Shown: positions 1,020 through 64,000 of the stretch, one piece after another
Layout: the number at the start of each line of letters is the position of its first letter
Position numbering within the stretch: the first letter of the stretch is position 1
From: an uncultured Latescibacterota bacterium
GTDB lineage: Bacteria; Latescibacterota; UBA2968
DNA length: 64,000 bases
Assembly (NCBI GenBank): GCA_958295785.1
Contig: OY282377.1
Coordinates: forward strand, 2,880,385-2,944,384
Direction: 5' to 3'
Position numbers and translations under genes: made by a program
Notes under the pieces: generated by a model
The model's database searches: none
Told to the model about the DNA's origin: nothing
What the model saw: the letters and a program-made list of their open reading frames with translations, nothing else

Positions 1020-3113
1020 ATGTATCGAAAAAAATGGAGCATGTCATGCTGGACGACAACAAGTTATTGGAGGAAATCCGCTTTGAACAGTATCAGAACA
1101 TTGTGCCATAGAACGCAGCACGGCTTTCGGCCCGTGTTCCGGCTTATCGCGCTCGTCCTACTTGGAGTTCTCGTAGCCGCCTGCTCTGAGGACCCAGCGG
1201 TGACGGCCACTCCCGAAGAGGGGCCGGCTCTCACCACTCATCTGTACGCGCTGGAGAGCGAGTCCGTCAGACTCGAAAGTTTCGACGGAAACGGCGGGGC
1301 CATTGAAAGCATAGGTGAGGACCTGCTTGTCGTTACGCCGAAGGGAAGGTTTGCCCTGGTCTTCCCGGACACTGTGGAATATCTCGACGGTCTGGTTCCT
1401 ATGAATTATACGGGGCTGCAATCAAGCCCAATCAGCGAGCATCCTGATTTCGACCTATACCCATTTCGAGTCGCCGATATTCTGCTGAAAGAGATTGAGG
1501 AAGGGTACATACTATTTGCTACCCATCACTATTTCACCGGAGAATGTGTCCGGTTCAGGTTGTCATCCACGACGCTGGTTCGGGAAGGACAGAGGTTGAC
1601 AGTCCTGCCGGATTGGAGAACGATATTCGATGCGGAGCCATGTTTGGAACAACTTGATGGATGGCAGAATGCAGGCGGGAAGATGCTGACGGATGGAGAA
1701 GAACACTTACTCGTAACAATCGGCAACCATAAATATGGACAGTGCCTCATTCCTTCTAACCTGCATATAAGCAAACTCGTTCGCATTGAAATCGAAACGG
1801 GAGAATCGGAGATATTTGCCACCGGTATTCGCAACTCACAAGGGCTGGCGCGGGACTCGGAAGGCAACCTCTGGGCGACGGATCACGGGCGGCAAGGGGG
1901 GGACGAACTGAACCTGTTACGGGAGGGAGCCGATTATGGCTGGCCGCTGGTCTCTTATGGCATTGACTACGGCGGTGTCGCTCTCCGGCTGGTCGAAGAC
2001 GAGATGGTGGGCCGGCACGACGGCTCCCTGCGGCCGGCGTTCGCATGGGTCCCAAGCATAGCCGTTTCCGCCATCGCCATCAACGACGAGGAGCATCTTC
2101 CCTTGTGGAAAGACGACCTGCTGGTTGCTTCGCTGGCCGGTCAATCCCTCTTCCGAGTCCGCCGCTACGGGACGGACGTGCAGTATGTCGAAAGGATCGA
2201 ACTCGGCTATCGGATACGAGACATTACGGTTATGCCGGACGGACGCATAGCCCTGCTGCGCGATGGGGGGTGGGTCTATTTTCTGAGCCGTTCCGCGAGG
2301 TACTGCAATGAAGAAGCGTGGAATCAGCGCAATGTGTACTCAGTCAACTGCGATTCCATCGCCGCATCGCCAGCACTGGACTCACCGGGCGCGGGAGACT
2401 CGGGGCCGGCAGTTCCGCCCTTACGCGGAAATCTGGGGAGATACACGGCGGCCGGCGCTCAGCTATTCGACCAGCACTGCCGCAACTGTCACAACCTGAA
2501 CGCCGAGCAGCACAGCACCGGGCCTCACGGCGCCGGGCCGCACCTGTTTGGCGTCATCGGGCGGCGAGCGGGCGAGGTCGGAGGCTACCGATTTTCGGCT
2601 GCGTTCAATTCGCTGGACGTCGTCTGGACGCAGGAACGCATCAAGCAGTTTCTCACTGACCCGGAGCAGTTCGCTCCAGGCACGTCCATGTCGTCGTCTG
2701 GCATTGGCGAAGCGGAAGCCCGCGCCATAGCCAACTACATCAGCACCCTCAACGACCTGGAGGAGGTGGTCAGAAATCGCGAACCGGCAGTCCGCTCCGA
2801 CTTTGACGTATATCTCAGCGAAAACATGCTGGTCTATGCCAGGGAGCCGTGCGCCCGCGCCGACACGGAGGCGATGTTCTTTCTGCACGTCCTCCCCATC
2901 AACCCAAATGACCTCCCAGACCATCGCAAGCAGTACGGCTTTGACAACCTGGACTTCGATTTCGAGGGGCACGGCATGAGAATTGACGGGAGATGTATGG
3001 CGACGGTGGCTCTCCCGGGGTATGACATTATCCGCATCATGACCGGCCAGTACGTGCGCGTGGACAGCGATTTCGATAACCTCTGGGCAACGGAAATCCA
3101 CTATGAACAGTAA
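1020..3113 (+). CDS. PQQ-dependent sugar dehydrogenase (soluble GDH-like beta-propeller) fused to a class I cytochrome c domain and a novel C-terminal ~105-aa domain; putative lipoprotein
   Basis: Lipobox-like LLGVLVAAC lies near the N-terminus; the true start codon is uncertain. Propeller motifs NSQGLARDSEGNLWATDHGRQGGDELN and GADYGWP. CRNCH haem-binding motif at about nt 2476-2490. The C-terminal block (RSDFDVY...YGFDNLDFDF...TGQYVRVDSDFDNLW) is shared with three downstream membrane proteins. Confidence 0.7.
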   Translation: MYRKKWSMSCWTTTSYWRKSALNSIRTLCHRTQHGFRPVFRLIALVLLGVLVAACSEDPAVTATPEEGPALTTHLYALESESVRLESFDGNGGAIESIGEDLLVVTPKGRFALVFPDTVEYLDGLVPMNYTGLQSSPISEHPDFDLYPFRVADILLKEIEEGYILFATHHYFTGECVRFRLSSTTLVREGQRLTVLPDWRTIFDAEPCLEQLDGWQNAGGKMLTDGEEHLLVTIGNHKYGQCLIPSNLHISKLVRIEIETGESEIFATGIRNSQGLARDSEGNLWATDHGRQGGDELNLLREGADYGWPLVSYGIDYGGVALRLVEDEMVGRHDGSLRPAFAWVPSIAVSAIAINDEEHLPLWKDDLLVASLAGQSLFRVRRYGTDVQYVERIELGYRIRDITVMPDGRIALLRDGGWVYFLSRSARYCNEEAWNQRNVYSVNCDSIAASPALDSPGAGDSGPAVPPLRGNLGRYTAAGAQLFDQHCRNCHNLNAEQHSTGPHGAGPHLFGVIGRRAGEVGGYRFSAAFNSLDVVWTQERIKQFLTDPEQFAPGTSMSSSGIGEAEARAIANYISTLNDLEEVVRNREPAVRSDFDVYLSENMLVYAREPCARADTEAMFFLHVLPINPNDLPDHRKQYGFDNLDFDFEGHGMRIDGRCMATVALPGYDIIRIMTGQYVRVDSDFDNLWATEIHYEQ

Positions 3114-3294: not shown

Positions 3295-4387
3295 TAGGAC
3301 TTACGCAATTTCCATTGGAATATGAGGTGCTTTGAGTTGTTGTCTCAAGAAGTCAGCCACCCCCCGGTATTTGACTTGATAAATGGTTTGTCCTGTTTGA
3401 TAGGCCACCTGCGCGAGTCGAATCCAAACTAACATCGCACACCCAATATGATTTCGTACCATGCGTGCCAACCGGCATTGACACTTTTCAAGCCCGGTCA
3501 CCTGTTTGACTTCGCGGTGAAATTGCTCAATTTTCCATCGTTGGTGACACACCTGTTGTACCCCTGAAGAATCGTTTTGAGCATGGTCGTTAGTCACGAC
3601 ATACGCCGTGCGTCTATCAGAAGACGCCACCCGGAATAATTTCACTTTGTGGTCTTTGGGGAACCCTCTGATTTTAATTGACTTGCCTTGTTTGCGTTGC
3701 GCTTTCGTCCAAGTTAAGCTATCTACGCGCTGGTAGGGGATTGTGCCTGCCGAATCGTCCACGCGCCGGTTCGTCTTGAGGGGATAATAATAGGTTTTTT
3801 GCATCTGCTCTATGTGTAGCATGACCGTTTTAGTCGCATACCCACTGTCCATCAAGACCCCGGTAAAAGGAAGGCGCTTCTGATAGACCAACCCAGAGAG
3901 CATGTCCTTGAGATGATCCAATTTGGTTTTGCCATCGCCTTGCGGGTCATAAATCCGATAGTCAATCAGCCAGAACCGATCCTGTTGCGGATTGACATAG
4001 ACACATGTGACCACCCCGATGCCGTTGATGACGCCTTGGGCGTTGCCGCTATATTGACGGCGCACTAACGCGATCTTGCGTGCGTGTCGCTTGTCTAAAA
4101 CCGTGTCATCAAAGATCACATAGCCTTCAGGCGTCAACGCGATGGGGGCTTTGACGTGTTCCCACACCAAGCGGGGGGGGGATACGCGCACCGGCGAGAT
4201 AGCGGTTGATCCTATCATGACTGAACCCTTCGCTATGGTCGGCGAAATGGGGCAGGGTATCGTTGAGGGGACTGCTAAGCAGATACTGACAGTAATCCAA
4301 ACGCGTCGGTTGGCGCATTGACACCTCCTCAAAGTGATAAATTTTACGGAATTGCACCCTTTTTTAACTCAGCATGCGTAAGTCCTA
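3295..4387 (-). mobile_element. IS701/IS4-like insertion sequence nested inside the IS1595 element, 5-bp TSD ACCTT
   Basis: Terminal inverted repeats TAGGACTTACGC (3295) and GCGTAAGTCCTA (4387). Flanking direct repeat ACCTT at 3290-3294 and 4388-4392. Removing the element restores a perfect in-frame junction of the IS1595 transposase. Confidence 0.6.
3301..4357 (-). pseudogene. IS701/IS4-family DDE transposase, frameshifted at a G9/C9 homopolymer (~4173-4181)
   Basis: The N-terminal part (ORF 4127-4357, LDYCQYLLSSPLN) and the C-terminal part (ORF 3301-4200, with WKIEQFHREVKQ...CRLAR as the IS4-type C-terminal motif) are in different frames. They are joined across a GGGGGGGGG run. Confidence 0.6.
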
Positions 4388-5522
4388 ACCTTGAAAAGAT
4401 ACGCTTTAAGGATGGCGAGTCTTGTCCGCATTGTGGTAGTATGGGAAAAATCTATCGTCGTTCTGATTTGGCGTATCGGTGCTCGGATTGTGGGCGTAAT
4501 TTTCATATGATTTACGGAACGATGTTTGGCGCGTCAAAAATCAAGATGTTGCCTAAATGGTTCGCCGCAATATGGATTGAAACGAACCCCTCAAAAGGTA
4601 TTTCAAGCGTTCAGTTGGCTAAAATGATCGGTACAACGCAAAAGACCGCTTGGTTTATGCTTCAAAGAATACGAAACGCTTTTGGCAACAAAGACGATGA
4701 TGATGATGATTTTCTGTCTGGTATCGTTGAAATTGATGAAACCTACATCGGTGGCAAAGAAAAGAACAAACATAAATCCAAAAAGTTGAATGCGGGTCGC
4801 GGAACAGTAGGTAAATCGGTTGCTTTCGGAATGCGGGAAAAAGGGGAAGATGGTGAGGCAATGGCGGTTCATGTACAGGACGCAAAAGGGGCAACATGAC
4901 ACGAGAAGATGTTGAACCGGGTATTGACGGGCGCAACTATTCATGCAGACGAGAACCGCGCATACGGCGCGTTGAGGGATGATTACGAAGGGGAACAAAT
5001 CAATCATTCTGCCGACGAATATGAACGCGATGGTGTCCATACGAACGCCATTGAGAGTTTGTGGGCACGGGTTAAGCGTGTCTATATGGGTATTCATCAC
5101 CACGGGTCAGACAAACACATGCAAAAGGACCTGAATGCTTGCGTGTTTCGCATCAATCGAAAAAAGGGTGATACCTTAAGTCGTGTTGATGAGATGTTGA
5201 ATATGGCGATGGGCGCACGGTTGACTTACAAGCAACTTATAGCCAGTGAGGGGGTTGCATGAACAACCTTTATGGCACAAGCGGGCGATATGGAAGTCAA
5301 CGGGAAATGTTATCCACGCATGCAAATGTTATCCGTTCCTGAAAGACTCGAAGGAAAACGTTTTAAAACGTTAGATGTTAGGGGCAGGCATGCCGAAAAT
5401 CAGAGGTCGCTTGCATTCAACACCAAAAACCCGTGATTACTTTAACAAGAAGATTTAGGTTGTCAAGTATATAATCCCCTAAACAATCTGTGGCGCGCCC
5501 TGATTGTGCTCTATCAGAACAT

Positions 5523-6735
5523 AAGTACTCTGTAAATTAAGTTATTTTAAGTTTTGAATTGTCTGGATAAACGCGTTGATAATGGGCATTCATCTTGTCT
5601 CTGGCCTTGGGCAAAGTGAACTGCCAATTCAAGGGAATGCCCTTGGCCTCCCGCTCCTGAAAGAAGGCCAAAACTTCCCGGCGCAGTTCCGCCTGCGTCG
5701 CAATGCGCCTATTCAAACATCCTCGCGCCAGAGCCGAAAATTCGATCTCGATCATGTTCAACCAACTCGCCGACTTGGGAGTAAAGAAGAACTCAAACTT
5801 CTGCGCGAGGGCAAACGCCTCATCGGCCGGCAAGGAACGATAGAAGGCATGGCGGGTATGCGTGTTGAGATTGTCTTGCACCAAGCGGATTTTCTCCGCT
5901 TGTGGCCAATGCTGTGTCAGGGCCTGACAAAAGTGGGTGTATTCCTTCATCGTGCGCCGAGGATAGATTTCGGCAAGCCGTTTGCCGCTTAAAGGCTCAA
6001 TGGCGGCCAACAGCGCACACGAGCCGCGATCTCATCGCCGCCCACTTCGCCTGCGCCCAGCTTAAAGGCTCAATGGCGGCCAACAGCGCACACGAGCCGT
6101 GTTTGGTATAGGCATCATGTTCTTTGGTCACTTGGCCTGTTGTCAGGGGCAAGGGATCAAGGACTTGTCCGATGAGAAAACAGGGACGTTCATCAAAGCA
6201 GACCACAGGAACATTGGGATCATGAGGTTGGTCATACAGCCAAAGCAAGGCTTCCATGCGTGCGAGAAAGGACGCATTCACTTTGCGGATACACCATGTT
6301 TTCTTCAAGTGGGGCTTCAATTCGTTTTTTTGAGACTCGTTTTAACATGCGTGTGTGAGAGATGCTCACAAGAGCCCAATGCCACGCAGTGATCCGCCAA
6401 GAGGCGCAACGTCCATCTGCCATGGCCTGCCGGGGGGGTTGAACAGGCCAAGGCGGTGATTTGGGCCCGTTGCTTGCCGGTCATCTCCACCGGGCGTCCC
6501 GGCCGCGGGGCATCTTTGAGGCTGTCCAAGCCGAGGGTGCGGTATTTCTTTGCCCAATGACTCAGGGTCTGCCCGGTCATGCCGAGGGTTTGAGCCCCTT
6601 GGGTGTAGGTTTTGCCTCGGTCGAGTTCAAGCAAGCCCAAGGCGCGTTTGTAGATTCGGGCTTTTTGGTTGCCTTTGGTGATCAAGGCGGTCAAATGGAA
6701 ATAACAAATTATTTAATTTACAGAGTAATAAGTAC
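5523..6735 (-). mobile_element. IS630-family insertion sequence, degenerate
   Basis: Inverted repeats at about 5523-5545 (AGTACTCTGTAAATTAAGTTATTT) and at about 6703-6735 (reverse complement GTACTTATTACTCTGTAAATTAAATAATTTG). The internal transposase is split into three ORFs. Confidence 0.5.
5537..6694 (-). pseudogene. IS630-family transposase, frameshifted, with an internal 38-bp tandem duplication
   Basis: HTH N-terminus (ORF 6317-6694), middle part with CFDERPCF (ORF 5997-6320) and DDE_3 C-terminus (ORF 5537-6010) lie in three frames. A direct tandem repeat TTAAAGGCTCAATGGCGGCCAACAGCGCACACGAGCCG sits at 5989-6026 and 6062-6099. Confidence 0.6.
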
Positions 6736-9103
6736 GGGGGGCCTGCCTCCCCGGCTACGCAACGCGCTGTTCGTCCTGTTCATCGGGGGCATCCTGGCCT
6801 ACGGGGCCGGGTTTGCCTGGTACATGCTCGCCCGCTTCGATCTCGTCAACCTGATCCGCGATGTGAACGGAGACGACTCCTTCTATTACTTCCAGATCGC
6901 CCGCAACTTGGCCGAGGGGAAGTTCTCCACTTTCGACGGCGGCATCACGCGCACCAACGGCTACCATCCCCTCTGGCTATTTCTGATCACGCCGTTCTAC
7001 TGGGTATTCGACAAGGAAGCGGTGCTGTTCGCCATCAAGGCGTTCGAGATCATGCTCATCGCCGGCGGCGTGGCCCTCGTCGCCGCAGCCGCCCGGCTGG
7101 CACGCATGCCCTATATTCTGCTGTTCGCCGCGCTGCCGATGCTCTACCACCAGCACCACGCCTTGATTGCAGGAATGGAAGCGGCGGCAGGACTGTTCAT
7201 GCTCGGCCTGTTCACTCTGGCCGCCTGTCTCTTTGCGCGAAGCCCGGCGCGGTGGAAGTGGCCGCTGGCCGCGGTCACCTTTGCCCTGCCCTGGGTGCGC
7301 TTGGAGTACATCGCCATATCGCTGGCGGGGACTGCGGTGCTGTGCCTCGTCGAGTGGTCGAGGCAGGAGCGAGCGCCCGGCGCGCCACTCGGAGAACGGG
7401 CGCGTTCCGCACGCTCCGTCAAGGCGGCCGCCCCGTTTCTCGGCACGGTCGGCGGCATCCTGGCGTACTTCGCCTACAACAAGCTCGTCTTCGGGGGCGT
7501 GACGCCTGTGAGCGGCGCGACCAAGCAGATGTGGTCGGAGCGGTTATGGGAGCAGGAAGGCGGGTACAGCTTCGTTCAGAACTTCTGGGATGTCTTGCAG
7601 ATTCCCGCCTTCGACTACGAGCTGCTGGTCGCGCTGGAGGTCTGCGCCTACGTCGTTCTGGTCTGGTGGTCCTCCCCCCCCCCACGTTCCAGGGGCTGGA
7701 CAGACCGGTTGCTGTTGGCCTTCCTGGTGTGCGTGTTCGGCTTGGCGGTCGGCCACCTCGCCAAGTTCGCTCAGACCGTTCTCACTGTGCATCCCAACTG
7801 GGGGAGTTATGCCTGGTACTTCGTCCCGGCATACCTGATGATGGTGCTTATTATTCCCGTAAGGTGCTATGTCGCCATCCACTTCATCCGCCGTTTCCTC
7901 GACCCGAAGTCGCCCCGGATAGCCAACCTCCTGAGCATGGGCATCGTTGTTGTCGGAACAGCCTTCCTGTTTACCAAGGCGGACTTCACGGGGCCATTCC
8001 GGTTGGTTGACCGTCTTGGCAAGTCAACCCGCCTCAAAATGAAGGTTATTTCTTATATGGGTGTGCAGGTTATGGACCGTGTGCTGCCCGAGGACAGCGT
8101 GGTCGGGGCGTGGGACGCCGGCGTCATCGGGTATTTCTCTCGCTATCCGGTGGTGAACCTGGATGGCCTGGTCAATTCCTACGAATACCTGCGCGCCCTA
8201 AGGGAAGGAACCGAGGCCACGTTCCACCAACGATACGGGATTACCCATTTCGCCATCGTCGAGTTCCTGCAGGAAGGAACCGAGGTCCACGTTCTGCCAG
8301 CAGTACGGGATTACCTGGCTCGAAAACGTCGAGAGCGCCCGGCCGTGGGTGCGATCCTGTTCGAAGGCTCGCAATATCGCCATAACAGAAAGAACGTACT
8401 GTACAAACGCCAATTCAGACTCCTGGCTCCCAAGCCGCCGGAGATGTCATCGGGCGGGATCAATCGTCCCGACTGGTTCTGGCAGCGGATGGCACCGCAC
8501 TTCGACCACTGGTCGGACAGCGTCGGGCTGATTGTGGACGGACGGATGGCGCAGGCGTTCGTCAGAGATTGCACGCCGGACGAACTGGCAGTGTGGTCCT
8601 GGGCCGGACCAGGGGATGGAACGGCCGCCAGCGTCTGGACGCAAACGGGGTTGTGCGTCACCGCCGCCGTTCTGCCCCCCACCATATCGAGTCCGGTTCG
8701 GTTAGAGACAATGTCAGTAAGCGATTGGGGGTCGGGGCAGCTGGGTGGCGGCCGGCCGATCATCCGCTCCGACTGGGATGTGTATGTTGTCGGGAACAGT
8801 CTCATCTACAAGAAGGAGCAGTGTACCCCGGAGGACGTGGAACCAACCTTCTTCCTCCACCTGTATCCGGTTGACATGAACGACCTCCCCAGCCATCGCA
8901 AGCAGTACGGTTTCGACAACCTGGACTTCGCTTTCAGGAATCACCGTATCCCCATCAAGGGAGAAGTCTGTGCAGCGGTACGGGCACTGCCCGATTACGC
9001 CATCGCCGCGATCCGCACCGGCCAGTTCACCGGCGAGGGCCTGATCTGGGAGGGCAGTTTCGATGTTGTCGAGCCGGCGGATGACGGGAAAGCCGCGCAA
9101 TGA
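6695..9103 (+). CDS. GT-C-fold polytopic membrane glycosyltransferase-like protein (ArnT/PMT-like), paralog 1, with the novel C-terminal periplasmic domain
   Basis: Multiple TM helices. First-loop acidic motif NGDDSFYYFQIARNL, typical of GT-C enzymes. About 90% nucleotide identity to paralog 2. The only in-frame ATG before the homologous region lies inside the IS630 terminus, so the native 5' end was probably displaced by the IS. Confidence 0.55.
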   Translation: MEITNYLIYRVISTGGLPPRLRNALFVLFIGGILAYGAGFAWYMLARFDLVNLIRDVNGDDSFYYFQIARNLAEGKFSTFDGGITRTNGYHPLWLFLITPFYWVFDKEAVLFAIKAFEIMLIAGGVALVAAAARLARMPYILLFAALPMLYHQHHALIAGMEAAAGLFMLGLFTLAACLFARSPARWKWPLAAVTFALPWVRLEYIAISLAGTAVLCLVEWSRQERAPGAPLGERARSARSVKAAAPFLGTVGGILAYFAYNKLVFGGVTPVSGATKQMWSERLWEQEGGYSFVQNFWDVLQIPAFDYELLVALEVCAYVVLVWWSSPPPRSRGWTDRLLLAFLVCVFGLAVGHLAKFAQTVLTVHPNWGSYAWYFVPAYLMMVLIIPVRCYVAIHFIRRFLDPKSPRIANLLSMGIVVVGTAFLFTKADFTGPFRLVDRLGKSTRLKMKVISYMGVQVMDRVLPEDSVVGAWDAGVIGYFSRYPVVNLDGLVNSYEYLRALREGTEATFHQRYGITHFAIVEFLQEGTEVHVLPAVRDYLARKRRERPAVGAILFEGSQYRHNRKNVLYKRQFRLLAPKPPEMSSGGINRPDWFWQRMAPHFDHWSDSVGLIVDGRMAQAFVRDCTPDELAVWSWAGPGDGTAASVWTQTGLCVTAAVLPPTISSPVRLETMSVSDWGSGQLGGGRPIIRSDWDVYVVGNSLIYKKEQCTPEDVEPTFFLHLYPVDMNDLPSHRKQYGFDNLDFAFRNHRIPIKGEVCAAVRALPDYAIAAIRTGQFTGEGLIWEGSFDVVEPADDGKAAQ

Positions 9104-9149: not shown

Positions 9150-11621
9150 ATGGACATGAACAAGAAGATGACCACGCCGGATGCCGCCCGTTGTCTGAAT
9201 CCGGGGGTAACACTGTCCTCTCGGTTGCACAACGCGCTGTTCGTCCTGTTCATCGGCGGAATCCTGGCCTACGGGGCCGGGTTCGCCTGGTACATGCTCG
9301 ACCGCTTCGACCTCCTCAACCTGATCCGCGATGTGAACGGGGACGACGCCTTCTATTACTTCCAGATCGCCCGCAACTTGGCCGAGGGGAAGTTCTCGAC
9401 CTTCGACGGCGGCATCACGCGCACCAACGGCTACCATCCCCTCTGGCTACTGCTCATCACGCCGTTCTACTGGGTATTCGACAAGGAAGCCGCGCTGTTC
9501 GGCATCAAGGCGTTCGAGATCATGCTCGTTGCCGGCGGCGTGGCCCTCGTCGCCGCGGCCGCCCGGCTGGCGCGCCTGCCGTGGGTTCTGATGTTCGCCG
9601 CGCTACCGATGCTCTACCAGCAGTACGGGTTGCTTCTGGGGATGGAAGCGGCCGCTGCTCTGTTCATGCTGGGCCTGTTCACTCTGGCCGCCTGTCTCTT
9701 TGCGCGAAGCCCGGCGCGGTGGAAGTGGCCGCTGGCCGCGGTCGCCTTTGCCCTGCCTTGGGTGCGCCTGGAGTACATCGCCATATCGCTTGCGGCAACC
9801 GCGGCGCTGTGCCTCGTCGAGTGGTCGAGGCGGGAGCGAGTGCCCGGCGCACCACTCGGAGAGCGGGCTCGTTCCGTGCTCTCCGTCAAGGCGGTCACCC
9901 CGTTTCTCGGCGTGGTCGCAGGCATCCTCGTGTACTTCGCATATAACGGTATCGTCTTCGGGGGCGTGACGCCGGTGAGCGGCAAGGCCAAGCAGATATG
10001 GTCGCAACGGTTATGGGGGCAGGAAGGCGGGCACAGTTTCGTTCAGAACTTCCGGGACGTCTTGCAGATTCCTGCCTTCGACCACGAGTTGCTGGTCGCG
10101 CTGGAGGTCTGCGCCTACGTCGTTCTGGTCTGGTGGTTCGCCCGCCGTTCCAGGGGCCGGACAGACTGGCTGCTGTTGGCCTTCCTGATGTGCGTGTTCG
10201 GCTTGGCGGTCGGTCACCTCGCCAAGTTCGCTCAGACCGTTCTCACTGTGCATCCCAACTGGGGGAGTTATGCCTGGTACTTCGTTCCGGCATACCTGCT
10301 GAAGCAGCTTATCATTCCCGTAAGGTGCTATGTCGCCATCCACTTCATCCGCTGTCTCCTCGAACCGAGGTCGCCCCAGGCAACCAACCTCCTGAGCATG
10401 GGCATCGTTGTTGTCGGAACAGCCTTCCTGTTTACAAAGGCGGACTTCACGGGGCCATTCCAGTTAGTTGACCGTCTTGGCAAGTCAACCCACCTCAGCA
10501 TGAAGGTTATTTCTTATATGGGTGTGCAGGTTATGGACCGTGTGTTGCCCGAGGATAGTGTGGTCGGGGCGTGGGACGCCGGCGTCATCGGGTATTTCTC
10601 TCGCTTTCCAGTGGTGAACCTGGATGGCGTGGTCAATTCCTACGGCTACCTGCGCGCCCTAAGGGAAGGAACCGAGGCCACGTTCTACCAGCGATACGGG
10701 ATTACCCAGTTCGCCATCGTCAAGTTCCTAAGGAAAGAAACCGAGGGCCACGTTCTACCAGCGATACGGGATTACCTGGCTCGAAAACGTCGAGAGCGCC
10801 CGACCGTGGGCGAGATCCTGTTCGAAGGCCCGCCATATCTCCATAACAGAAGGAACGTACCGCACAAACGCCAATTCAGACTCCTGACTCTCGAGCCGCC
10901 GGAGATGTCATCGGGCGGGATCAATCGTTCCGACTGGTTCTGGCAACGGATGGAGCCACACTTCAACCACCGGTCGGATGGCGTCGGGTTTCTTGTTGAC
11001 GGGCGGCTGGTACAGGCCTTCGCCAAGGAATGCGATCCGGATGAACTGGTCGTGTGGCCCTGGGCCGGACTAGGGGATGGAACGGTCGCCAGCACCTGGA
11101 CGCAAACGCAGACGAGGTTGTGCGTCACCGCCGCAGTTCTGCCCCACACTATATCGAGTCCGGTTCGGTTCGAGACAATGTCAGAAAGAGATATTCTGTT
11201 TCGTCTGACGGGTGGCAACCCGCCGGTAATCCGATCCGATTGGGATGTGTATCTCGTCGGGAACAGCCTCATCTACGTCAAGGAGCCGTGCATCCCAGAG
11301 GACGTTGAACCAAGGTTCTTCCTCCACCTGGACCCGGTTGACAGGAACGACCTCCCCATCTATCGCAAGCTGTACGGCTTCGACAACCTGGACTTCACTT
11401 TCAGGGATCACGGCTTCGACAACCTGGACTTCACTTTCAGGGATCACCGTTCTCCCATCGAGGGAAGAGCCTGCGTAGCGATACGGGAGTTGCCTGATTA
11501 CGCCATCGCCGCGATCCGCACCGGTCAGTTCACCGGCGAAGGCAGGGTCTGGGAGGGCAACTTCACCTACAACTCTCTGTCCGATAAATCGGAGGCACTA
11601 CACATGGAGGATCCCCAATGA
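9150..11621 (+). CDS. GT-C-fold membrane glycosyltransferase-like protein, paralog 2 (tandem duplicate of paralog 1)
   Basis: NGDDAFYYFQIARNL motif, many TM segments, and a C-terminal domain with a 33-bp internal tandem duplication (GFDNLDFTFRDH x2). Its stop overlaps the start of paralog 3 (ATGA at 11618-11621). Confidence 0.6.
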   Translation: MDMNKKMTTPDAARCLNPGVTLSSRLHNALFVLFIGGILAYGAGFAWYMLDRFDLLNLIRDVNGDDAFYYFQIARNLAEGKFSTFDGGITRTNGYHPLWLLLITPFYWVFDKEAALFGIKAFEIMLVAGGVALVAAAARLARLPWVLMFAALPMLYQQYGLLLGMEAAAALFMLGLFTLAACLFARSPARWKWPLAAVAFALPWVRLEYIAISLAATAALCLVEWSRRERVPGAPLGERARSVLSVKAVTPFLGVVAGILVYFAYNGIVFGGVTPVSGKAKQIWSQRLWGQEGGHSFVQNFRDVLQIPAFDHELLVALEVCAYVVLVWWFARRSRGRTDWLLLAFLMCVFGLAVGHLAKFAQTVLTVHPNWGSYAWYFVPAYLLKQLIIPVRCYVAIHFIRCLLEPRSPQATNLLSMGIVVVGTAFLFTKADFTGPFQLVDRLGKSTHLSMKVISYMGVQVMDRVLPEDSVVGAWDAGVIGYFSRFPVVNLDGVVNSYGYLRALREGTEATFYQRYGITQFAIVKFLRKETEGHVLPAIRDYLARKRRERPTVGEILFEGPPYLHNRRNVPHKRQFRLLTLEPPEMSSGGINRSDWFWQRMEPHFNHRSDGVGFLVDGRLVQAFAKECDPDELVVWPWAGLGDGTVASTWTQTQTRLCVTAAVLPHTISSPVRFETMSERDILFRLTGGNPPVIRSDWDVYLVGNSLIYVKEPCIPEDVEPRFFLHLDPVDRNDLPIYRKLYGFDNLDFTFRDHGFDNLDFTFRDHRSPIEGRACVAIRELPDYAIAAIRTGQFTGEGRVWEGNFTYNSLSDKSEALHMEDPQ

Positions 11622-13708
11622 AGGAGAATGCCCTCCGAAACGCGCGAGTCATTCTGCTACATTTGCCGTGGTTGGCGCTGCTGGGATGGTTCTCCTCTGT
11701 CGCGTGGTTCCTGTGCGACGACGCGTTCATCAGCTTCCGCTACGTCCGTAACCTGCTCAAAGGCCACGGCCTGGTGTTCAACCCCGGCGAATATGTCGAG
11801 GGCTATTCCAATTTCCTGTGGGTGCTGGAACTGGTCGCCATCTGGTGGGCGCTGGACGTGGCCCCGGAGGACGCGGCGCCGTGGCTGTCGGTCGCCTTTA
11901 CCGCCGGCACCATCGCCGCGATGATGTGGTGGATCGCACGTCTGCCGTTGCTGTGCCACCGGGGGCTGGTCGCATGGATGACTCAGGGCCTCGTGTGCGC
12001 CAGTGCCACCTTCGCGGTGTGGACGTCCGGCGGCGGACTGGAGACGCGGCAGTTCACCTTCTTCATCGTCCTGGCCGTGGTGTGCCTGAGCCTTTACAGA
12101 GACAGCCGCCGGGGCCTGCTGGTGGCGTCGTTGAGCCTGGCGGCTGCCGCCTTGACGCGGCCCGAAGGCCCGCTGTTGGCGGCGTTGTGCTTCGGCTGGT
12201 TCGTCATCCAGCGGATGGCGGACACGGGGCGTCTCAATCCGGACTGGCGGCGGTTGATCTGTTTGGCAACGCCCTTTGTCGTCCTGGTCGGCGCCCATTT
12301 CCTGTGGCGATACTCCTATTACGGCGAATGGCTACCCAACACCTACTACGCCAAGCATGTGCGGCCCTGGTATGAGTCGGGTGTTCGCTACTTGTGGGCG
12401 GCGGCGCTGGAGACCGGGCTGTATCTGCTGATCCCCTTGGCCGCAGTCGCCATGCGGAATCGCTGGCGAGCATCCCAGGACGGGATATGGGCGCTGGTGC
12501 TGCTCCTGGTCGGCGTCCACATGGCCTATGTGATGCGGATCGGGGGCGACCATTTCGAGTACCGTCCGCTGGATTTCTACTGGCCGTTACTGGCTGTCCC
12601 CGCGTCCATGGGAATCGTGTACCTCGGCTCGCGGATTGCCAACCACCGGTGGTTGCGACGATTCTCCCCCCGTTTGGCAGTGGGGGCGCGAACGTGCGCA
12701 ATCGTTCTCTTCGTGCCGGTATTGTTCTACACCAGCGCGATTCAGGGCGCCCTGTTATTCGAGGGGGCCGCAATACGCGAACGCATCAAGAGGCTGCACA
12801 TAGAACTCGATGACGACAATGCGGGATGGTTACTTGCCGCGCCGGGGATGCCGATGCTCGTCGCCGTCTCAAATGACCTGCGCCACCAAACGTCCCGGCA
12901 GTTCGTCGCTTTGCCTCTCGCGGAACACCGCGAGTTCGCCAACTGGCAATTGCGAAGGTGGAAGCCCTACGAGAACATGGAGAGGGGAGTGATTCCCGAT
13001 GACGCGCTGATGGTTGGCGGTTCGGTTGGAATCCGCTTCTATTATCTTCCCGACCTGAAAGTCATCGACTCCCTTGGCTTGACCGACGCGACGGTGGCGC
13101 GCAACCCGGTCGAAACCCCCAACCACCAGCGCCTCATCGCCCACGACCGTCAACCACCACCCGGATACCTCGAAGAGCGGGGCGTCAACTTCACTATACA
13201 CCCGCAGGCACCCAGCGCATTCAAGGCGCTTGTCCGTGCGGAATACGCCGTAAAGGTCGGCCCGGATCTGTGGATGCCCTTTGACTCTCCCGACCAGCAG
13301 TGGGTCTTCGACCGTTTTGCCGGACGAGACTTGCGGGTGGCTGATCTCGATTACTGGACAGAGCTGCTCGGAGACCACCAACCGGCAATCCGCTCCGATT
13401 GGGAGGTGTATCTCTTCGGGAACAGCCTCATCTACAAGAAGGAGCAGTGTAACCCGGAGGACGCTGAACCAACATTCTTCCTCCACTTGTACCCGGTTGA
13501 CGTGAACAACCTCCCCAGTCGCCTCAGGCAGGTCGGCTTCTTCAACAAGGACTTCGCTTTCAGGGATCAGCGTATTCCCATCAAGGGAGAAGTCTGCATA
13601 GCGAGGCGGGAACTGCTTTCTTACGGCATCGCAACGATCCACACCGGCCAGTACGTGCGCGTGGACAGCGGTTTTGAAAACCTCTGGAGTGGAGAGATAC
13701 GCCGATAA
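11618..13708 (+). CDS. GT-C-fold membrane glycosyltransferase-like protein, paralog 3 (divergent N-terminal membrane domain, same C-terminal domain)
   Basis: DDAFISFRYVRNL first-loop motif, TRPEG motif, more than 10 TM helices. C-terminal AIRSDWEVYLFGNSLIYKKEQC...TGQYVRVDSGFENLW matches the C-terminus of the PQQ-DH/cytochrome c protein. Confidence 0.6.
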   Translation: MKENALRNARVILLHLPWLALLGWFSSVAWFLCDDAFISFRYVRNLLKGHGLVFNPGEYVEGYSNFLWVLELVAIWWALDVAPEDAAPWLSVAFTAGTIAAMMWWIARLPLLCHRGLVAWMTQGLVCASATFAVWTSGGGLETRQFTFFIVLAVVCLSLYRDSRRGLLVASLSLAAAALTRPEGPLLAALCFGWFVIQRMADTGRLNPDWRRLICLATPFVVLVGAHFLWRYSYYGEWLPNTYYAKHVRPWYESGVRYLWAAALETGLYLLIPLAAVAMRNRWRASQDGIWALVLLLVGVHMAYVMRIGGDHFEYRPLDFYWPLLAVPASMGIVYLGSRIANHRWLRRFSPRLAVGARTCAIVLFVPVLFYTSAIQGALLFEGAAIRERIKRLHIELDDDNAGWLLAAPGMPMLVAVSNDLRHQTSRQFVALPLAEHREFANWQLRRWKPYENMERGVIPDDALMVGGSVGIRFYYLPDLKVIDSLGLTDATVARNPVETPNHQRLIAHDRQPPPGYLEERGVNFTIHPQAPSAFKALVRAEYAVKVGPDLWMPFDSPDQQWVFDRFAGRDLRVADLDYWTELLGDHQPAIRSDWEVYLFGNSLIYKKEQCNPEDAEPTFFLHLYPVDVNNLPSRLRQVGFFNKDFAFRDQRIPIKGEVCIARRELLSYGIATIHTGQYVRVDSGFENLWSGEIRR

Positions 13709-13718
13709 GGAGAATAAT

Positions 13719-15191
13719 ATGAGCGATACTGCTGACCTCGGCCGGGGAGTGCAAGGGGAACCCTCTCGCAAGAAAAGTGTCCGGTTCCCTGCTTGGACAG
13801 CAGGCAGGCGGCCCGATCGCTTCACCCTGCTCCTCGCCGCCCTTGCAGTGCTGGGCGCCGTACTCATCCTGGCGCGGCAGGTCACCTATGGGGTGGGGTT
13901 GCACGGGGATTGGGTCACCTATATTTCTGTGGCCCGAAGTCTGCTGGCGGGAGAAGGCTTCGTTCAAATTCACGGTTGGCCCTATCTGCACTGGCCGCCG
14001 CTGTATCCGATGCTGCTCGCCGCGGCCAGCCTCTTTGCGTTCGACCCCTACGACGTCGCCGGGCCGTTGAATGCCGCTGTCTTCGGCCTGACTCTATTCG
14101 TCGCCGGTCAATACTTGCGGCGGCATGTGCAACACCCTTTCCTGGTCCTTTGGGCTTGTCTCGCCCTCATGCTGGCAATCCCCTTGACCCGGGTGGCCTC
14201 TCACGCAATTTCCGAGGCGCCCTTCATCCTGTTCGTGACGCTCTCTCTGGCGGACGTCCACATTTCTGGATACCGGCAAGCGGTCGGACCTGATTTGGGC
14301 CGCGGCGTTCACTTCCCTGGCTTTTCTGACCCGCTATATCGGCGTCACCTTGATCATCATCACCACGTTACCCCTGCTGCTGTTTCAGCGCGGCGGCGTG
14401 CCATTGGAGAAAGCGAAGCGCATTGGCTCGTACCTGTTGATTGCCGCGTTGCCGGTGGCGCTGTGGCTGTTGCGGAATGTCCTGGTCCACGGAAGATACC
14501 ATGGGCGCAGAAACCCGCCGCCGTGGACGTTGCTGGAGATTCTGGACAAGTTCCTGAGCGATCTGGCCGGGTGGGTCTTCCTCTACTTGCCATCTGGGAG
14601 TGTCAGAGTAGCCGCCGCGGCACTGGGCGGAGTGTGGCCCTATTGGCACTGGCAATGTCCGTCTGCCATGCGGTCGTCCGCTCGTGCCGGAAGGTAGGGA
14701 ACGGCATCGGAGGGAGCTCTTTCCACTTGTTCGGCGGCTTTGCCCTGGTGTACCTCGTCTTTCTCACCGCCTCGCAAGCGACCACCGAAATCCTCCCCTT
14801 GGGCGAACGCTATCTCTCTCCCGCATATATCCCGCTCCTGTTCGCGGCGGTGTTCGCGCTGGACAAGTTCCTTGAGAATCTCCGGCGGACTGCCGATGAT
14901 TCAGAACAAAATAGTTGGAGGAGAGGGGGAACGGCGAGCCTGCTATTGGTTGCCCTGGCGACAACCCTTTCCCTTTGGCTGGCTTGGCAGGTGGTGCTGA
15001 ACGTGCGTGAAATCAGACAGAATAATGAGGGCCGAGGCCTGGGAATAGCCGCGATGTGGGTCAACTCGGAAATCTTGCGGTACATCGAGGAGCATCTAAT
15101 GGCGGAGCGGATATTCAGCAATGTGTCATCTGCCATATACCTCCGCACGGATCATGCGGACCTTCACTATCTCCCCCCAAGCCTACGATGA
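13719..15191 (+). pseudogene. GT-C/ArnT-like membrane protein, paralog 4, with two compensating frameshifts (candidate pseudogene or sequence errors); lacks the shared C-terminal domain
   Basis: RBS TAAGGAG precedes the ATG at 13719. The N-terminus (frame 0) and the tail are membrane-like. The middle part of frame 0 (about 14260-14650) is Arg/His-rich and reads as wrong-frame sequence. The frame +1 ORF 14350-14697 carries the membrane-protein continuation (LIWAAAFTSLAFLTRYIGVTLIIITTLPLLLF). Confidence 0.45.
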
Positions 15192-15667
15192 GAAGGGAGA
15201 TAGAAAATGTTGTGCCCGGCGATTATGTCGCTTGTATGGATCCGAAGAAGTACCCCCGACATATCGCTGTGTTGAGGAAATTGCTGGGACTGGAGCCGGT
15301 GGCCGATCTGTCCGACGGTTCAATCTATCGCGTAACCCGCAGCGGCGCCGATCCCGCTCCTGCCTCTTTCATCAGCATCGTCGCTTCGATAGCAGGCGAG
15401 TCGTTCGTCGTCAAGTTGTCCGGCGGACATGCCAGATACGAACCATGGCAATGGGAACGGGGCAGCGATGCGACTGGCTGGACCAAAGTCACGCCCCGCG
15501 GGGCAACCTACCAATACACACCCACCGCCGCGGACGTTGGCCATCGCCTGAGGGCCTCCGCGGACTGTACGGACAAAGACGGGAAGACAATCAAAGCGAT
15601 GACCGCGCCATCCGAACCCGTACAGGCGGGCACTTCCGAAGCGGGCTATGTACCTCCGCGGAAATAA
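15188..15667 (+). CDS. hypothetical protein (~160 aa)
   Basis: ORF with ATG at 15188 in the frame of the longer 15056 ORF. No recognisable motif. Confidence 0.35.
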   Translation: MRREIENVVPGDYVACMDPKKYPRHIAVLRKLLGLEPVADLSDGSIYRVTRSGADPAPASFISIVASIAGESFVVKLSGGHARYEPWQWERGSDATGWTKVTPRGATYQYTPTAADVGHRLRASADCTDKDGKTIKAMTAPSEPVQAGTSEAGYVPPRK

Positions 15668-15953
15668 GGATCTATGAGAACCGGAGCTACATCTGGAAAG
15701 ACGAGTGAGGCTTTGCAGACGGCGTTGACGGATGTGTTGCAGGGCTATTGGGTTGCGCCTTTGCGTTTGGCGCGTCTGACCGGCTTTGGCTGGCGGCTAA
15801 AGGCACTCGAAACTATCAGGACATTGTAATTGCATTTTGGTCTTACGTCTGCTGTCTAATTGACTTTTCTTTGGCGACGCGCTATATTACGCGGTTTCCA
15901 AAACAGATGGGATGATCGGGAGATGGCATAAGGGCTTCAAATAGGGAGGGCCT

Positions 15954-16997
15954 GTGAAAGCAGCACAGATTGTCGCCCGCAGGCGCGTTGTGGTTGTCGA
16001 GGTGGATGAACCGCAACTCACAGGTGCCGGGCAAGTGAAAATTCGGTTGGAACGCGCGTGTTTGTGCGGTTCAGATGTGCCTTTGTGGGATTACGATCAC
16101 AATGAATTGGCGGAAACCGTGCAGCGCGATCCGCGCAGCGCAAAGTGCGTGCCGTTTGTCGATTACGTTCATGGCGATCCGTATCCCTTGCGCGTTGGTC
16201 TGTCGATTCACGAATGCCTGGGCACGGTGGTCGCATCCACGTCCGACAAATTTCAAGCGGGCGATTTTGTGCTGGCATTGCCCGATGGGCAAACCGGGTT
16301 GTGCGAATATATTTGCGCGCCCGATAGCCGAACCATTCCCTTGCCCAAAGGCGTTGTGCCCGACGAGCAAATTTTGATGACGCAACCTTTGGGCACGGTG
16401 GTTTGGGCATGTCAAAAACTGGGCAATATCGTCGATTGCGATGTGGCTATTGTGGGGCAGGGGCCGATGGGTTTGATGTTTGCGCGCATGCTCGGCAATT
16501 TGGGCGCGCGAAGCGTGATTGGGCTCGACAAATTGGATTATCGCCTGCACGCGGGAAAAAAAATGGGCGCGACCCATGTGGTCAATGTCGATAAGGCCGA
16601 TGCGGAAGAAGCCGTGCGCGAGATCACGGGCGGCAAAATGGCGGATCTGGTTGTCGAGGCGGTCGGGCATCAGACCAAAACCTTGAATGCGTGCATGAAA
16701 CTCGTGCGGCCTCTGGGTACGCTGCTGTGCTTTGGCGTGCCGGATGATGTGTATTATCCCTTTGCGTATGCCGAGTTTTTCAGATTAAATCTCAATTTGA
16801 TTTCCACGGTGGGGCCCAATGCCGTGCCCAATTTTTCGCTCGCCCGCGATTTAATCGCACAAGGTCGGGTGGATGTGGCGCCGCTGGTGACGCATGTGTT
16901 GCCGTTTGAAGAAATTCAGCACGGGTACGAGTTGTTCACCGACCGCGGGGATGGGGCCATCAAAGTGGTGATCGATTACGATTCGTTGAGTACCTGA
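15954..16997 (+). CDS. zinc-dependent alcohol/polyol dehydrogenase (MDR superfamily)
   Basis: CGSDV catalytic-zinc motif. Rossmann motif VAIVGQGPMGLM. RBS AGGGAGG before a GTG start. Confidence 0.8.
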   Translation: MKAAQIVARRRVVVVEVDEPQLTGAGQVKIRLERACLCGSDVPLWDYDHNELAETVQRDPRSAKCVPFVDYVHGDPYPLRVGLSIHECLGTVVASTSDKFQAGDFVLALPDGQTGLCEYICAPDSRTIPLPKGVVPDEQILMTQPLGTVVWACQKLGNIVDCDVAIVGQGPMGLMFARMLGNLGARSVIGLDKLDYRLHAGKKMGATHVVNVDKADAEEAVREITGGKMADLVVEAVGHQTKTLNACMKLVRPLGTLLCFGVPDDVYYPFAYAEFFRLNLNLISTVGPNAVPNFSLARDLIAQGRVDVAPLVTHVLPFEEIQHGYELFTDRGDGAIKVVIDYDSLST

Positions 16998-17015
16998 CAA
17001 AAGGGGGTTTTACCT

Positions 17016-18602
17016 GTGGCAGCAATGTTTGAAAACGGCGCAGTGGTTGGACAACCCGAATCCGATTCTGCTGCTGTGAGTATCTTAAAAAAGGGTGGCA
17101 ATGCCGTGGATGCGGCTGTAAGCGCGGCATTTCTCGCGTGCGTTGCAGCACCCAAGTCTTGTGGCATTGGCGGTTATGGCGGCGCGATGACCGCCTACAT
17201 TGGCGGCGAAGTCGTCTGCGTTGATTTTAATACGGTCGCGCCTCGCGCGGCCCATGCGCGGATGTTTCGGGTGACGCGCTCAGACGGGCGGTTTGGATCT
17301 GTGGTCGGGGGGTATGCCAATCAAGTCGGGTACAAAGCCATTTCCGTGCCCGGGGTGCTGGCAGGCCTGGGGTTGGCACTGGAGAAGTTCGGCAAGATGA
17401 CCTTGGCCGATGTGCTCGCGCCCGCGATTCGCACGTGTAAAAACGGGTTTCGGGTGTCGGCAAATTACGCGGCAGGTGTTGCCCAAAGCGAAAGGCGTAT
17501 CCGGGAATTTCCAGAAACCGCACGGTTGTTGCTGAACGAAGGCGAATTGCCCAAAAGCGGGGACCGGGCAAAAAACCCCGATTTGGGCGACTTGCTCAGT
17601 CAGATTGCGGACAAGGGCGTGCGCGAATTTTACGAGGGGAACATCGCAGAGTGCATCGCCAAACACGTTCGGGACAACGGCGGGGTCTTATCGCGCAATG
17701 ATCTGGCAAAGTACGAGGCGCGCGTGGTCGATCCTGTACACGCGATTTGCCTGGAATACGATGTGTACAGTTCGCCGCTTTGCAGCGCGGGCTTGAGCTT
17801 GGCGCAGATGTGTGCCATTGCCGACGAGGCCGAATTGGATCTCTACGCACGCGACTCGGCCCGTTTGGCCCATGGCATGGTCGAAACCATTCGCGCAGCG
17901 TGGATGGATCGCTACCGGCATTTTGGCGATCCAAAGTTCGTCACTGTGCCCACAGACATGCTGATGTCGGATATCCACTTGGGCGCGACCGCAAAAGAGG
18001 TCGCCACCTATATTGCCGACGGCAAACGCGGTCAATCCCTGTTGCGACCATTTTACACGGGTGGCACCACGCATATTTGCACCGCGGACGCGCAAAACAA
18101 TCTGGTCTCGCTGACCCTCACGCACGGGCCGGGCTTTGGGTCTTTTGTCACCATCCCGGGCATGGGCTTGCTGATGAACGCGGGCATGTCGCGGTTCGAT
18201 CCCGGTTCGGGGTTGAAAAATTCCATTGGCCCCGGCAAAGCGCCGATTATGAACATGTGCCCGGTCATTGTGTTGCGCGATGGCGAGCCTATCATGACCT
18301 TGGGCGCGTCTGGGGGAACGCGCATCCCATCGTCCGTTTTTCAGGTTTTGGCGCGCAGACTGGTGCTCGACGAAGACCCCGAGTGGTCAATCACCGCGCC
18401 GCGGGTGCATTCAGAAGGCAATGAGTGGGTGCGTCTGGAAGAAGATTTCGGAGAAACCGCCCCGGAATATCTCAAGTCAGTCGGGTACAAGATAAACACC
18501 AAAGGCGCGGTGGCCGCCCATGTTCGGATGATCGAGATCACGGACGATGGCCTGCTGGCAATGTACGACCCGCGCATGAAGGCACGCGAGAAGGGGTATT
18601 GA
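17016..18602 (+). CDS. ggt: gamma-glutamyltranspeptidase family protein (no signal peptide)
   Basis: Ntn-hydrolase nucleophile motif GGTTHICTAD. GGT-family C-terminal motifs GASGGTRIPSSVFQV. Confidence 0.8.
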   Translation: MAAMFENGAVVGQPESDSAAVSILKKGGNAVDAAVSAAFLACVAAPKSCGIGGYGGAMTAYIGGEVVCVDFNTVAPRAAHARMFRVTRSDGRFGSVVGGYANQVGYKAISVPGVLAGLGLALEKFGKMTLADVLAPAIRTCKNGFRVSANYAAGVAQSERRIREFPETARLLLNEGELPKSGDRAKNPDLGDLLSQIADKGVREFYEGNIAECIAKHVRDNGGVLSRNDLAKYEARVVDPVHAICLEYDVYSSPLCSAGLSLAQMCAIADEAELDLYARDSARLAHGMVETIRAAWMDRYRHFGDPKFVTVPTDMLMSDIHLGATAKEVATYIADGKRGQSLLRPFYTGGTTHICTADAQNNLVSLTLTHGPGFGSFVTIPGMGLLMNAGMSRFDPGSGLKNSIGPGKAPIMNMCPVIVLRDGEPIMTLGASGGTRIPSSVFQVLARRLVLDEDPEWSITAPRVHSEGNEWVRLEEDFGETAPEYLKSVGYKINTKGAVAAHVRMIEITDDGLLAMYDPRMKAREKGY

Positions 18603-18779
18603 AGCGATTGGTTATCAAGTGATCTCACCTGTGAGGGAGAATCTATCGAAACGATTGATCAGAAACGATGGAAAGTGGAGACGTTTCACAAAACGCTCAC
18701 GTCTCATGCTCCGTTGGTCAAGTCGCCTAAAAAATAAATATCTGCGACACGCCCTGTATATGCCAGTTGAGGAATCCTT

Positions 18780-35902: not shown

Positions 35903-36149
35903 GGCGACTCCCTCCAAAAAATGAAGCCCTCTCTGTCTCAAAAAAGGCCAATGGATCTGTCAAGTCATATTGCCAGTTCGTGAGCCTCCGATCCTTGATG
36001 ACCACGCGGCGAAAGGCGTCTATGGGAGGGGTATCGGTCACGGCATTGGCTTCGGTCACACGAAATTAAAAATCAGCTATCAGCCCCTGTCTATCTGAAA
36101 TGACGTTGCTCCAGCACATGCTTTGCCGACCGCTTGGGGCCTGGGCGGC

Positions 36150-63809: not shown

Positions 63810-64000
63810 TAGTCAGCGATTAGCGATCAGTGACCCGCCCATCCGCAGATGGCAGGCAATCTTAGGGGCGGTGCTTCCGTGCCATTTGTTCCAGTTGGGA
63901 AATTGCAACGCGGGTCGGTGCTATCGGCAACCTGCTGTTGGGTCAATTCATTCGCATTGATAGCTGATTTTCAAACAAATTCAAAACTTCACAAAATACA

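Follow-up and report, generated by a model that had tools for sequence, protein, structure and literature searches.

The region analyzed here is a stretch of 64,000 nucleotides (hereafter the window) from contig OY282377.1 of an uncultured Latescibacterota bacterium (assembly GCA_958295785.1, positions 2,880,385 to 2,944,384 of the forward strand). It contains four plus-strand genes whose products all end in the same module of about 105 amino acids: a GSDH-cytochrome c lipoprotein (1020..3113, carrier 1), two polytopic membrane proteins that are paralogs of each other (6695..9103 and 9150..11621, carriers 2 and 3, also termed GT1 and GT2), and an AftB-like GT-C membrane glycosyltransferase (11618..13708, carrier 4, also termed GT3). 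An earlier interpretation made from the letters alone (the sequence-only reading) had noticed the shared C-terminal block, and our analysis bears this out, whereby all four open reading frames (ORFs) turned out to be continuous. In all-against-all blastp comparisons the GSDH protein matched GT3 (2e-28), GT1 (2e-27), and GT2 (6e-25) over the C-terminal block only, so the possibility that its match to the three membrane proteins was spurious could be dismissed. The match between GT1 and GT3 (8e-41) was likewise confined to this block. A four-way alignment of the module copies yielded 39 invariant columns and a mean column identity of 62%, which together with the E-values rules out a chance or low-complexity similarity. 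The N-terminal parts had been described as unrelated, and this holds for the GSDH protein, GT1, and GT3, which match each other only in their last ~100 residues, but not for GT1 and GT2, which are 80% identical over their whole length. A tblastn search with the block against the whole window returned exactly four strong matches (E <= 5e-27). A weak fifth candidate at 63866-63991 (E 0.035) was discarded, as it gave no signal in a sensitive hidden Markov model (HMM) scan.

The first copy had been placed at 2787-3113, which is correct; the HMM and a structure model set the module at about 2781-3110 and extend it past the "TGQ" motif to include a last beta-hairpin. Copy 1 (2781..3110, HMM score 173-184) has a long-hairpin tail, "YVRVDSDFDNLW..EI", whereas copy 2 (8753..9067, HMM score 181-190) has a tail of the short type, "FTGEGLIWEGSF". 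Two C-terminal hairpin variants can thus be distinguished, a long one with the pattern "YVRVDSxFxNLW..EI" in the GSDH protein and GT3 (copy 4, 13376..13705) and a short one with the pattern "FTGEGxxWEGxF" in GT1 and GT2. The module of GT2 (copy 3, 11220..11570) is split by a perfect 36-bp tandem duplication (11374-11447, 2.1 copies, 100% match), which repeats GFDNLDFTFRDH and inserts 12 amino acids. A close relative of this module, fragment P0012 from locus L074, does not have the 36-bp duplication, which is therefore recent and may disrupt the GT2 module. Elsewhere on the 5.66-Mb contig, on which proteins identical to those of the window are encoded, there is at least one further module-bearing gene fragment, P0028 (114 amino acids, long-hairpin type), and the genome therefore has more carriers than the four of the window.

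The carriers were compared with Pfam, NCBIfam, and PDB sequences. Carrier 1 contains a GSDH-type beta-propeller at about 1560-2267 (PF07995, 8e-46; 157 bits vs cutoff 25), followed by a cytochrome c domain with a CxxCH motif at about 2448-2750 (PF00034, 1e-7; 33 bits vs cutoff 21.3). A lipobox, LVAAC, is present at residues 51-55 and is kept in all five GSDH-type carriers inspected. The GSDH and Cytochrom_C profiles and the lipobox support the earlier description of carrier 1 as a pyrroloquinoline quinone (PQQ) dehydrogenase/cytochrome c lipoprotein, and by these features it is a GSDH/PQQ-type quinohemoprotein dehydrogenase with predicted PQQ binding. The three membrane proteins had been described as GT-C paralogs. 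For GT3 this is supported by homology of residues 16-261 to AftB (PDB 9dlf; E 3e-5 with the single sequence and 8e-6 with a profile) and by a weak AftB match in NCBIfam. The N-terminal part of GT1 and GT2 matched neither a PDB chain in a profile search nor, in 27 orthologs, a Pfam family, and its AlphaFold2 (AF2) model from 47 homologs was unusable (predicted local distance difference test, pLDDT, 50). Carrier 2, which is 100% identical to protein P0276 on the 5.66-Mb contig, has about nine transmembrane (TM) segments in its first 430 amino acids, followed by a soluble C-terminal region and then the module. Both carriers of this uncatalogued family have a conserved DD(S/A)FYYF motif after TM1 (DDSFYYF in the first loop of carrier 2), which aligns with CDDAFISF of the GT3 type. 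A comparison of the GT1/GT2 and GT3 profiles with hhalign gave an E-value of 4.5e-4 but a probability of only 33%, the common part being TM1 and the DDxF loop. Thus, a GT-C identity of carriers 2 and 3 is plausible from these sequence features.

The module itself had not been recognized as a described family, and we also found it without a counterpart in Pfam, NCBIfam, and the PDB sequences. Its region in 78 members gave no Pfam match even at E <= 10, including fn3 and E-set families, and none of the Pfam carbohydrate-binding module (CBM) families was matched. No PDB chain was found at E < 0.005 in a profile search, and NCBIfam gave no match over the module region. Matches to Subtilosin_A covered only about 16 residues and were rejected as spurious. 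By these profile searches the module is a member neither of fn3 nor of a CBM family that has a Pfam model or a structure. Nevertheless, the isolated module folds confidently in AF2 (pLDDT 95.3), and the best structural matches of the model are FN3 domains, with CBM56, CBM31, CBM9, and the Ig-like domains of GH2 and ChiW also among the best. According to this model, the module is an autonomous ~105-amino-acid beta-sandwich with a predicted FN3/Ig-like fold. Over 645 copies, C25, C73, and W103 are conserved to 100% (numbering according to the translation of window 2775-3110), while G90, F60, P80, Q91, and L79 are conserved to 95-98%. Conserved polar positions are D29, T89, and Q91 and, less strictly, D10, D45, R50, and H37; both sequence and length are variable in the loops and in the terminal hairpin. 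From the invariant cysteine pair within a beta-sandwich we infer a C25-C73 disulfide.

In an exhaustive HMM search of 1.84 billion cluster representatives, 2,431 proteins passed a threshold of E <= 1e-3, of which 966 also reached E <= 1e-30. The family thus comprises at least 2,431 members, counted as 50%-identity clusters, and turned out to be a large one that is attached to envelope-glycan enzymes. Among the best 150 proteins, a list ranked by total score in which multi-copy proteins are over-represented, the module is repeated in arrays of 2-10 copies, which in 149 of these proteins stop not more than 40 residues short of the C-terminus. Clustering and Pfam assigned the partners to the GT1/GT2 type, to AftB-like GT-C proteins, to GSDH-cytochrome c proteins, and to arylsulfotransferases (ASST) of the lipoprotein type (PF05935, 3e-25). 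Furthermore, PMT_2 was matched above the Pfam cutoff, as well as GtrII, polysaccharide deacetylase, and a Wzy_C O-antigen ligase, the latter in the protein with ten module copies. Weak matches pointed to GT87, DUF2079, and SGNH/AlgX-like partners, and another partner is a family with 6-8 TM segments and no assigned function. Judged by their sequence profiles, almost all identifiable partners are extracytoplasmic enzymes that would build or modify envelope glycans. A word-indexed search had suggested mostly small stand-alone proteins of 86-193 amino acids; however, most of these stem from gene calls that are truncated or split by a frameshift. In complete genomes the module lies at the end of ORFs of about 450-1,370 amino acids, loci L074 and L075 show such splits directly, and genuine anchored stand-alone module proteins are a minority. 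The mean copy number is 2.5 in Caldilineaceae and 1.6 in Dehalococcoidia (both Chloroflexota) compared to 1.0-1.2 in all other lineages. In 21 of 68 loci at least two complete carriers lie within 8.3 kb.

The sequence-only reading had further assigned the module to the periplasm, and a location outside the cytoplasmic membrane was indeed confirmed by lipoboxes, by the invariant cysteine pair, and by stand-alone copies behind signal peptides. Lipoprotein signals are present on all five GSDH carriers and on most ASST carriers inspected. The stand-alone proteins P0033, P0066, P0095, and others have a signal peptide or an anchor directly in front of a single module. In the AftB-like carrier the module comes after a soluble C-terminal region that follows the TM segments, and from what is known of AftB we assume that this C-terminus lies on the periplasmic side.

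A GTDB collection with one genome per species was scanned, which gave 316 confirmed matches. The locus results reported here rest on the best 73 of these 316 matches, and taxon labels follow the database records. All 73 loci come from metagenome-assembled genomes (MAGs), many of them at chromosome level. Their labels are Gammaproteobacteria/Pseudomonadales, Alphaproteobacteria, Nitrospirales, Vicinamibacterales, Bryobacterales, Ca. Entotheonella, Binatia, Latescibacteria, Caldilineaceae, and Dehalococcoidia, and the same set of lineages has been described for sponge microbiomes (PMC8941161). Module proteins came only from ENA, NCBI, and Logan data. A scan of JGI metagenomes yielded no relatives, and neither did a scan of viral contigs, so that phage carriage was rejected. 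The carriers' community is most probably one of marine-sponge symbionts, as deduced from the taxon labels rather than from sample metadata. Two local arrangements may be mentioned here: an Entotheonella locus (L006, 80-4345) contains two tandem GT3-type paralogs of about 88% identity, and loci L009 and L014 overlap and show the same Nitrospirales array, in which GT3-type and ASST carriers adjoin.

Comparison of the carrier genes between these genomes revealed a high similarity across phyla, which the sequence-only reading had not anticipated. The catalytic part of the GT3 type is 82-89% identical at the amino acid level and 88-92% identical at the nucleotide level over 1.7 kb between the window and MAGs labeled as Latescibacteria, Entotheonella, Gammaproteobacteria, Vicinamibacterales, Pseudomonadales, and Nitrospirales. 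Its synonymous divergence (dS) across phyla is 0.19-0.30. According to the MAG labels, carrier-gene similarity spans at least seven orders in at least five phyla. Colinear blocks of several genes are shared as well; between Latescibacteria and Pseudomonadales, for instance, the GSDH-cytochrome c and GT3 genes are colinear over 4.3 kb with 88.7% identity. The GC content is 60-61.5% in the three membrane-protein carriers and 57.4% in the GSDH gene, compared to 54% in the rest of the window, and none of the genes flanking the window carriers recurs beside carriers elsewhere. Carrier-gene arrays have thus moved recently between distant bacterial phyla.

Besides the carriers, the pairing of modules and enzymes has also changed. 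Locus L074 is the syntenic locus of a close relative, with flanks of 96-97% identity and the same ADH-GGT-GDH genes downstream. Two rearrangements set it apart from the window, and the junctions of both lie inside modules (about 3045-3053 and about 13370). At the first junction, the module of the L074 GSDH gene follows the GSDH copy of the window up to the TGQ codon at about 3045-3053 and then continues with the tail of the window's GT1 module; the block of insertion sequence (IS) remnants and the GT1 gene of the window are therefore absent there. At the second, the DNA from window 13370 onward, which here is the GT3 module, matches with 96% identity the module of an arylsulfotransferase gene that is present in L074 and absent from the window, and L074 14331-20339 aligns with window 13370-19381 at 96%. 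The module repeats thus serve as recombination junctions that re-assort enzymes and modules, since every carrier ends in similar DNA. For 20 of 125 modules the nearest relative within one genome is located on a different enzyme class, with up to 91% identity. In GT3 orthologs, whose catalytic parts are 82-89% identical, the modules are mostly only 55-70% identical. In 12 of 12 pairwise comparisons, the ratio of nonsynonymous to synonymous divergence (omega = dN/dS) of the module (0.48-1.38) exceeded that of the catalytic part (0.25-0.43), whereby the pairs are not independent, cover about 110 codons, and give estimates that are confounded by recombination. The module dN is about 3-4 times that of the catalytic part in most comparisons. 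The dS is raised as well in most of them, which points to an exchange between paralogous copies.

The carrier arrays are also subject to decay. Downstream of GT3 lies a decayed fifth gene of the carrier type on the plus strand (13674-15191 and a frame-shifted part at about 15281-15691; tblastn 4e-48 and 1e-25), which corresponds to residues 1-714 of the PMT-like carrier L038 (segments 1-527 and 575-714). It has no module, and the homology stops where the modules of L038 begin. Its counterpart in L074 is an intact gene call of 648 amino acids (14677-16623) within the 96%-identical stretch. In L075, a 10-bp tandem duplication at about 9870 (corresponding to window 2705) shifts the reading frame of the GSDH-cytochrome c gene in front of the module. 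The GSDH copy of L074 (5814-7633) has about ten scattered deletions of 1-2 bp, with intact neighbor genes, and thus appears to be a pseudogene. Between carriers 1 and 2 of the window, three IS remnants lie back to back in mixed orientation (3301..6694): an IS4-like DDE_Tnp_1 remnant (3301-4332, minus strand), an N-terminal IS1595 fragment (4318-4899, plus strand), and an IS630-like remnant consisting of a DDE_3 part (5537-6010) and an HTH_32 part (6317-6694), both on the minus strand. Together with the 36-bp duplication in GT2, the frameshift in the fifth gene, the IS remnants, and the lesions in L074 and L075 show that carrier arrays are decaying.

Several known systems resemble the module in one or another respect. 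CBM/FN3-like "X" modules (CBM56, CBM31, CBM9, and the Ig-like domains of GH2 and ChiW) are likewise beta-sandwiches of ~100 amino acids on glycan enzymes, often in tandem. The mycobacterial arabinosyltransferases EmbA/B/C have a periplasmic, lectin-like beta-sandwich domain C-terminal to their GT-C part, which presumably holds the polymeric acceptor. The likeness here is the C-terminal domain on a GT-C enzyme, and carrier 4 is related to the same arabinofuranosyltransferase group (AftB); however, the module has no detectable sequence similarity to the Emb domains and differs from them in its portability among enzyme classes that are not related and in its tandem arrays. The fungal AA12 PQQ-dependent pyranose dehydrogenase of Coprinopsis cinerea combines a cytochrome, a PQQ propeller, and a CBM1. 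It shares with carrier 1 the GSDH-type PQQ propeller, an electron-transferring heme domain, and a small binding module at one end, but it is a secreted eukaryotic protein with another domain order, a cytochrome b, and a CBM1 knot, where carrier 1 has a cytochrome c and a beta-sandwich instead. SLH, LysM, CWB2, and choline-binding repeats are terminal tandem repeats on unrelated envelope enzymes of one organism, whose avidity rises with the number of copies. The module resembles them in its terminal tandem copies, whose number is highest in the monoderm Chloroflexota, but it is unrelated in fold and sequence and is also found in diderms, where it would be periplasmic. Finally, C-terminal sorting domains of the type IX secretion system (T9SS) are Ig-like beta-sandwiches of 70-100 amino acids at the extreme C-terminus of diverse exported proteins. 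Such a role was rejected, as the module has no NCBIfam match (assuming that models of T9SS C-terminal domains are included), occurs in tandem copies on inner-membrane proteins, and is found in hosts other than Bacteroidota; to our knowledge, the host phyla of the module lack a T9SS.

What the module does can be approached from its partners. Because the partner list consists of envelope-glycan enzymes, we suggest, at about even chances, that the module targets the attached enzyme to a glycan or another envelope polymer, whereby both ligand binding and the nature of the ligand are what we infer from the data above. The module would bind the polymer and hold the enzyme on its substrate, and additional tandem copies would increase avidity. 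The terminal position beyond the catalytic domain argues against a stalk, tandem amplification suggests avidity for a repetitive ligand, and the higher copy numbers in monoderm Chloroflexota point in the same direction. Precedents are the lectin-like domains of the Emb GT-C enzymes and the fungal AA12 combination of PQQ propeller, cytochrome, and CBM. As is the case for CBMs, the module is a discrete fold within carbohydrate-active enzymes (GT-C, Wzy_C, deacetylase, GtrII, PMT_2, and GSDH proteins). Of the two functions put forward in the sequence-only reading, carbohydrate binding and docking, the former thus stays putative, with strong circumstantial support from the partner list. Several observations weigh against targeting to a glycan or polymer and what we build on it. 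Structural matches to CBM56, CBM31, and CBM9 are no better than those to protein-binding FN3 domains, and in diderm carriers the module would be restricted to the periplasm, for which a polymeric ligand is less readily envisaged. The frequent frameshifts between module and enzyme show that enzymes can lose the module, the elevated omega of the module could mean relaxed constraint rather than adaptation, and the sponge origin is based on taxon labels, not on sample metadata. The carrier arrays have recently moved between phyla that share a habitat, most probably marine sponges, and homologous recombination at the module repeats deletes, inserts, and re-pairs enzymes and modules.

It might also be that the modules bind each other or a common scaffold and gather the carriers into one periplasmic complex, as proposed in the docking idea. 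The adjoining of different carrier classes in many genomes (the 21 of 68 loci mentioned above) and the recurrence of such arrays would fit with this, as would the up to 91% identity of modules on different enzyme classes in one genome and the FN3 domains, typical protein binders, as best fold matches. However, arrays of up to ten like copies at a free C-terminus agree better with avidity for a repetitive ligand than with a 1:1 interaction, anchored stand-alone modules with unrelated neighbors exist, and the rapid divergence of modules even between orthologous enzymes would erode a specific interface, so that we regard docking or oligomerization as rather unlikely. The FN3-like fold and the fast evolution would also suit a host-facing, "eukaryotic-like" domain that contacts sponge cells or matrix in adhesion or symbiont recognition; the family seems restricted to a sponge-type consortium, with no relatives in the JGI metagenome scan, and the longer arrays of the monoderm Chloroflexota would be surface-exposed. 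Yet most carriers are diderm, where a module on inner-membrane enzymes and lipoproteins has no evident route to the surface, the fusion is always to enzymes and not to adhesin-like repeats, and a Pfam fn3 match is missing even at E <= 10, which makes this role appear improbable to us. Lastly, the module could be a neutral appendage, a stable fold that acts as a passive spacer or cap without a ligand and owes its persistence mostly to its repeated DNA, which would favor recombination and the spread of the cassette. The rearrangement junctions in module repeats, an omega near 1 in several comparisons, and the large number of carriers that are frameshifted or decayed, along with the IS insertions in arrays, are in line with this. 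It is, however, a very improbable explanation in view of about 20 positions that are more than 90% conserved over 645 copies, including the polar D29, T89, and Q91, and of the amplification to ten copies and the anchored stand-alone forms, which indicate selection for the protein itself.

As a general kind, beta-sandwich accessory modules of extracytoplasmic carbohydrate-active enzymes are well known. What is new is the large uncatalogued family itself, which is preferentially joined to GT-C, Wzy, and sulfotransferase enzymes and appears to be restricted to a single host-associated consortium, as well as the very recent spread of carriers between phyla and the part that module repeats play in re-assorting enzymes. 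Since the module has no database entry, the terminal domain is currently missing from the annotation of thousands of envelope enzymes, and a Pfam-style model could be built straight from the present alignment. With near-identical multi-gene cassettes in chromosome-level MAGs of at least seven orders, the carrier genes are an exceptionally clear case of recent transfer between phyla in a single host-associated community, and recombination at module repeats offers a concrete mechanism for the shuffling of enzyme sets. Among the few cues proposed for how sponges distinguish symbionts from food are surface glycans, which have also been put forward as phage targets (PMC4453008). As the carriers shape bacterial surface glycans, an ecological meaning in sponge symbiosis is plausible. 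One may speculate further that a mobile "envelope glycan editing" cassette circulates among most sponge bacterial phyla, that a fast-evolving, re-assorted module retargets shared enzymes to different surface glycans, and that unrelated symbionts in this way converge on, or go on varying, a surface signature on which recognition by sponge cells or phages depends, which would make it a horizontally shared symbiosis determinant and not an ordinary accessory domain; we consider this extended scenario doubtful.

Apart from the carrier genes, the window encodes a heparinase II/III-like enzyme (DUF4962 and Hepar_II_III_C; 39006-41312, minus strand) and two sulfatases (60983-62296 and 62490-63809, plus strand). 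A repertoire of sulfatases and heparinase-like enzymes is typical of sponge symbionts, and here it represents a set for the degradation of sulfated glycans that fits the lifestyle of a sponge symbiont. Three consecutive genes on the minus strand (28411-35941) encode dynamin-family GTPases of 1188, 733, and 589 amino acids, the largest of which has long coiled-coil regions and a C-terminal helix-hairpin-helix domain (HHH_3) of the DNA-binding type. The only Rfam match in the window is a single tRNA gene (42541-42613, minus strand). An inverted repeat of ~370 nucleotides (arms 45417-45787 and 51057-51400, 89-96% complementary) brackets a segment of 5.3 kb with genes for a TPR protein, a lipocalin-like protein, and a 2-hydroxyacid dehydrogenase; this is possibly a mobile or invertible element. 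The arm occurs a third time (79%) in an intergenic region of L075 (1086-1531). Inside the bracketed segment, at 47898-48131, there is an imperfect short tandem repeat array with a reference unit of 117 nucleotides, a spacing of 21/75 nucleotides, and 65-87% identity.

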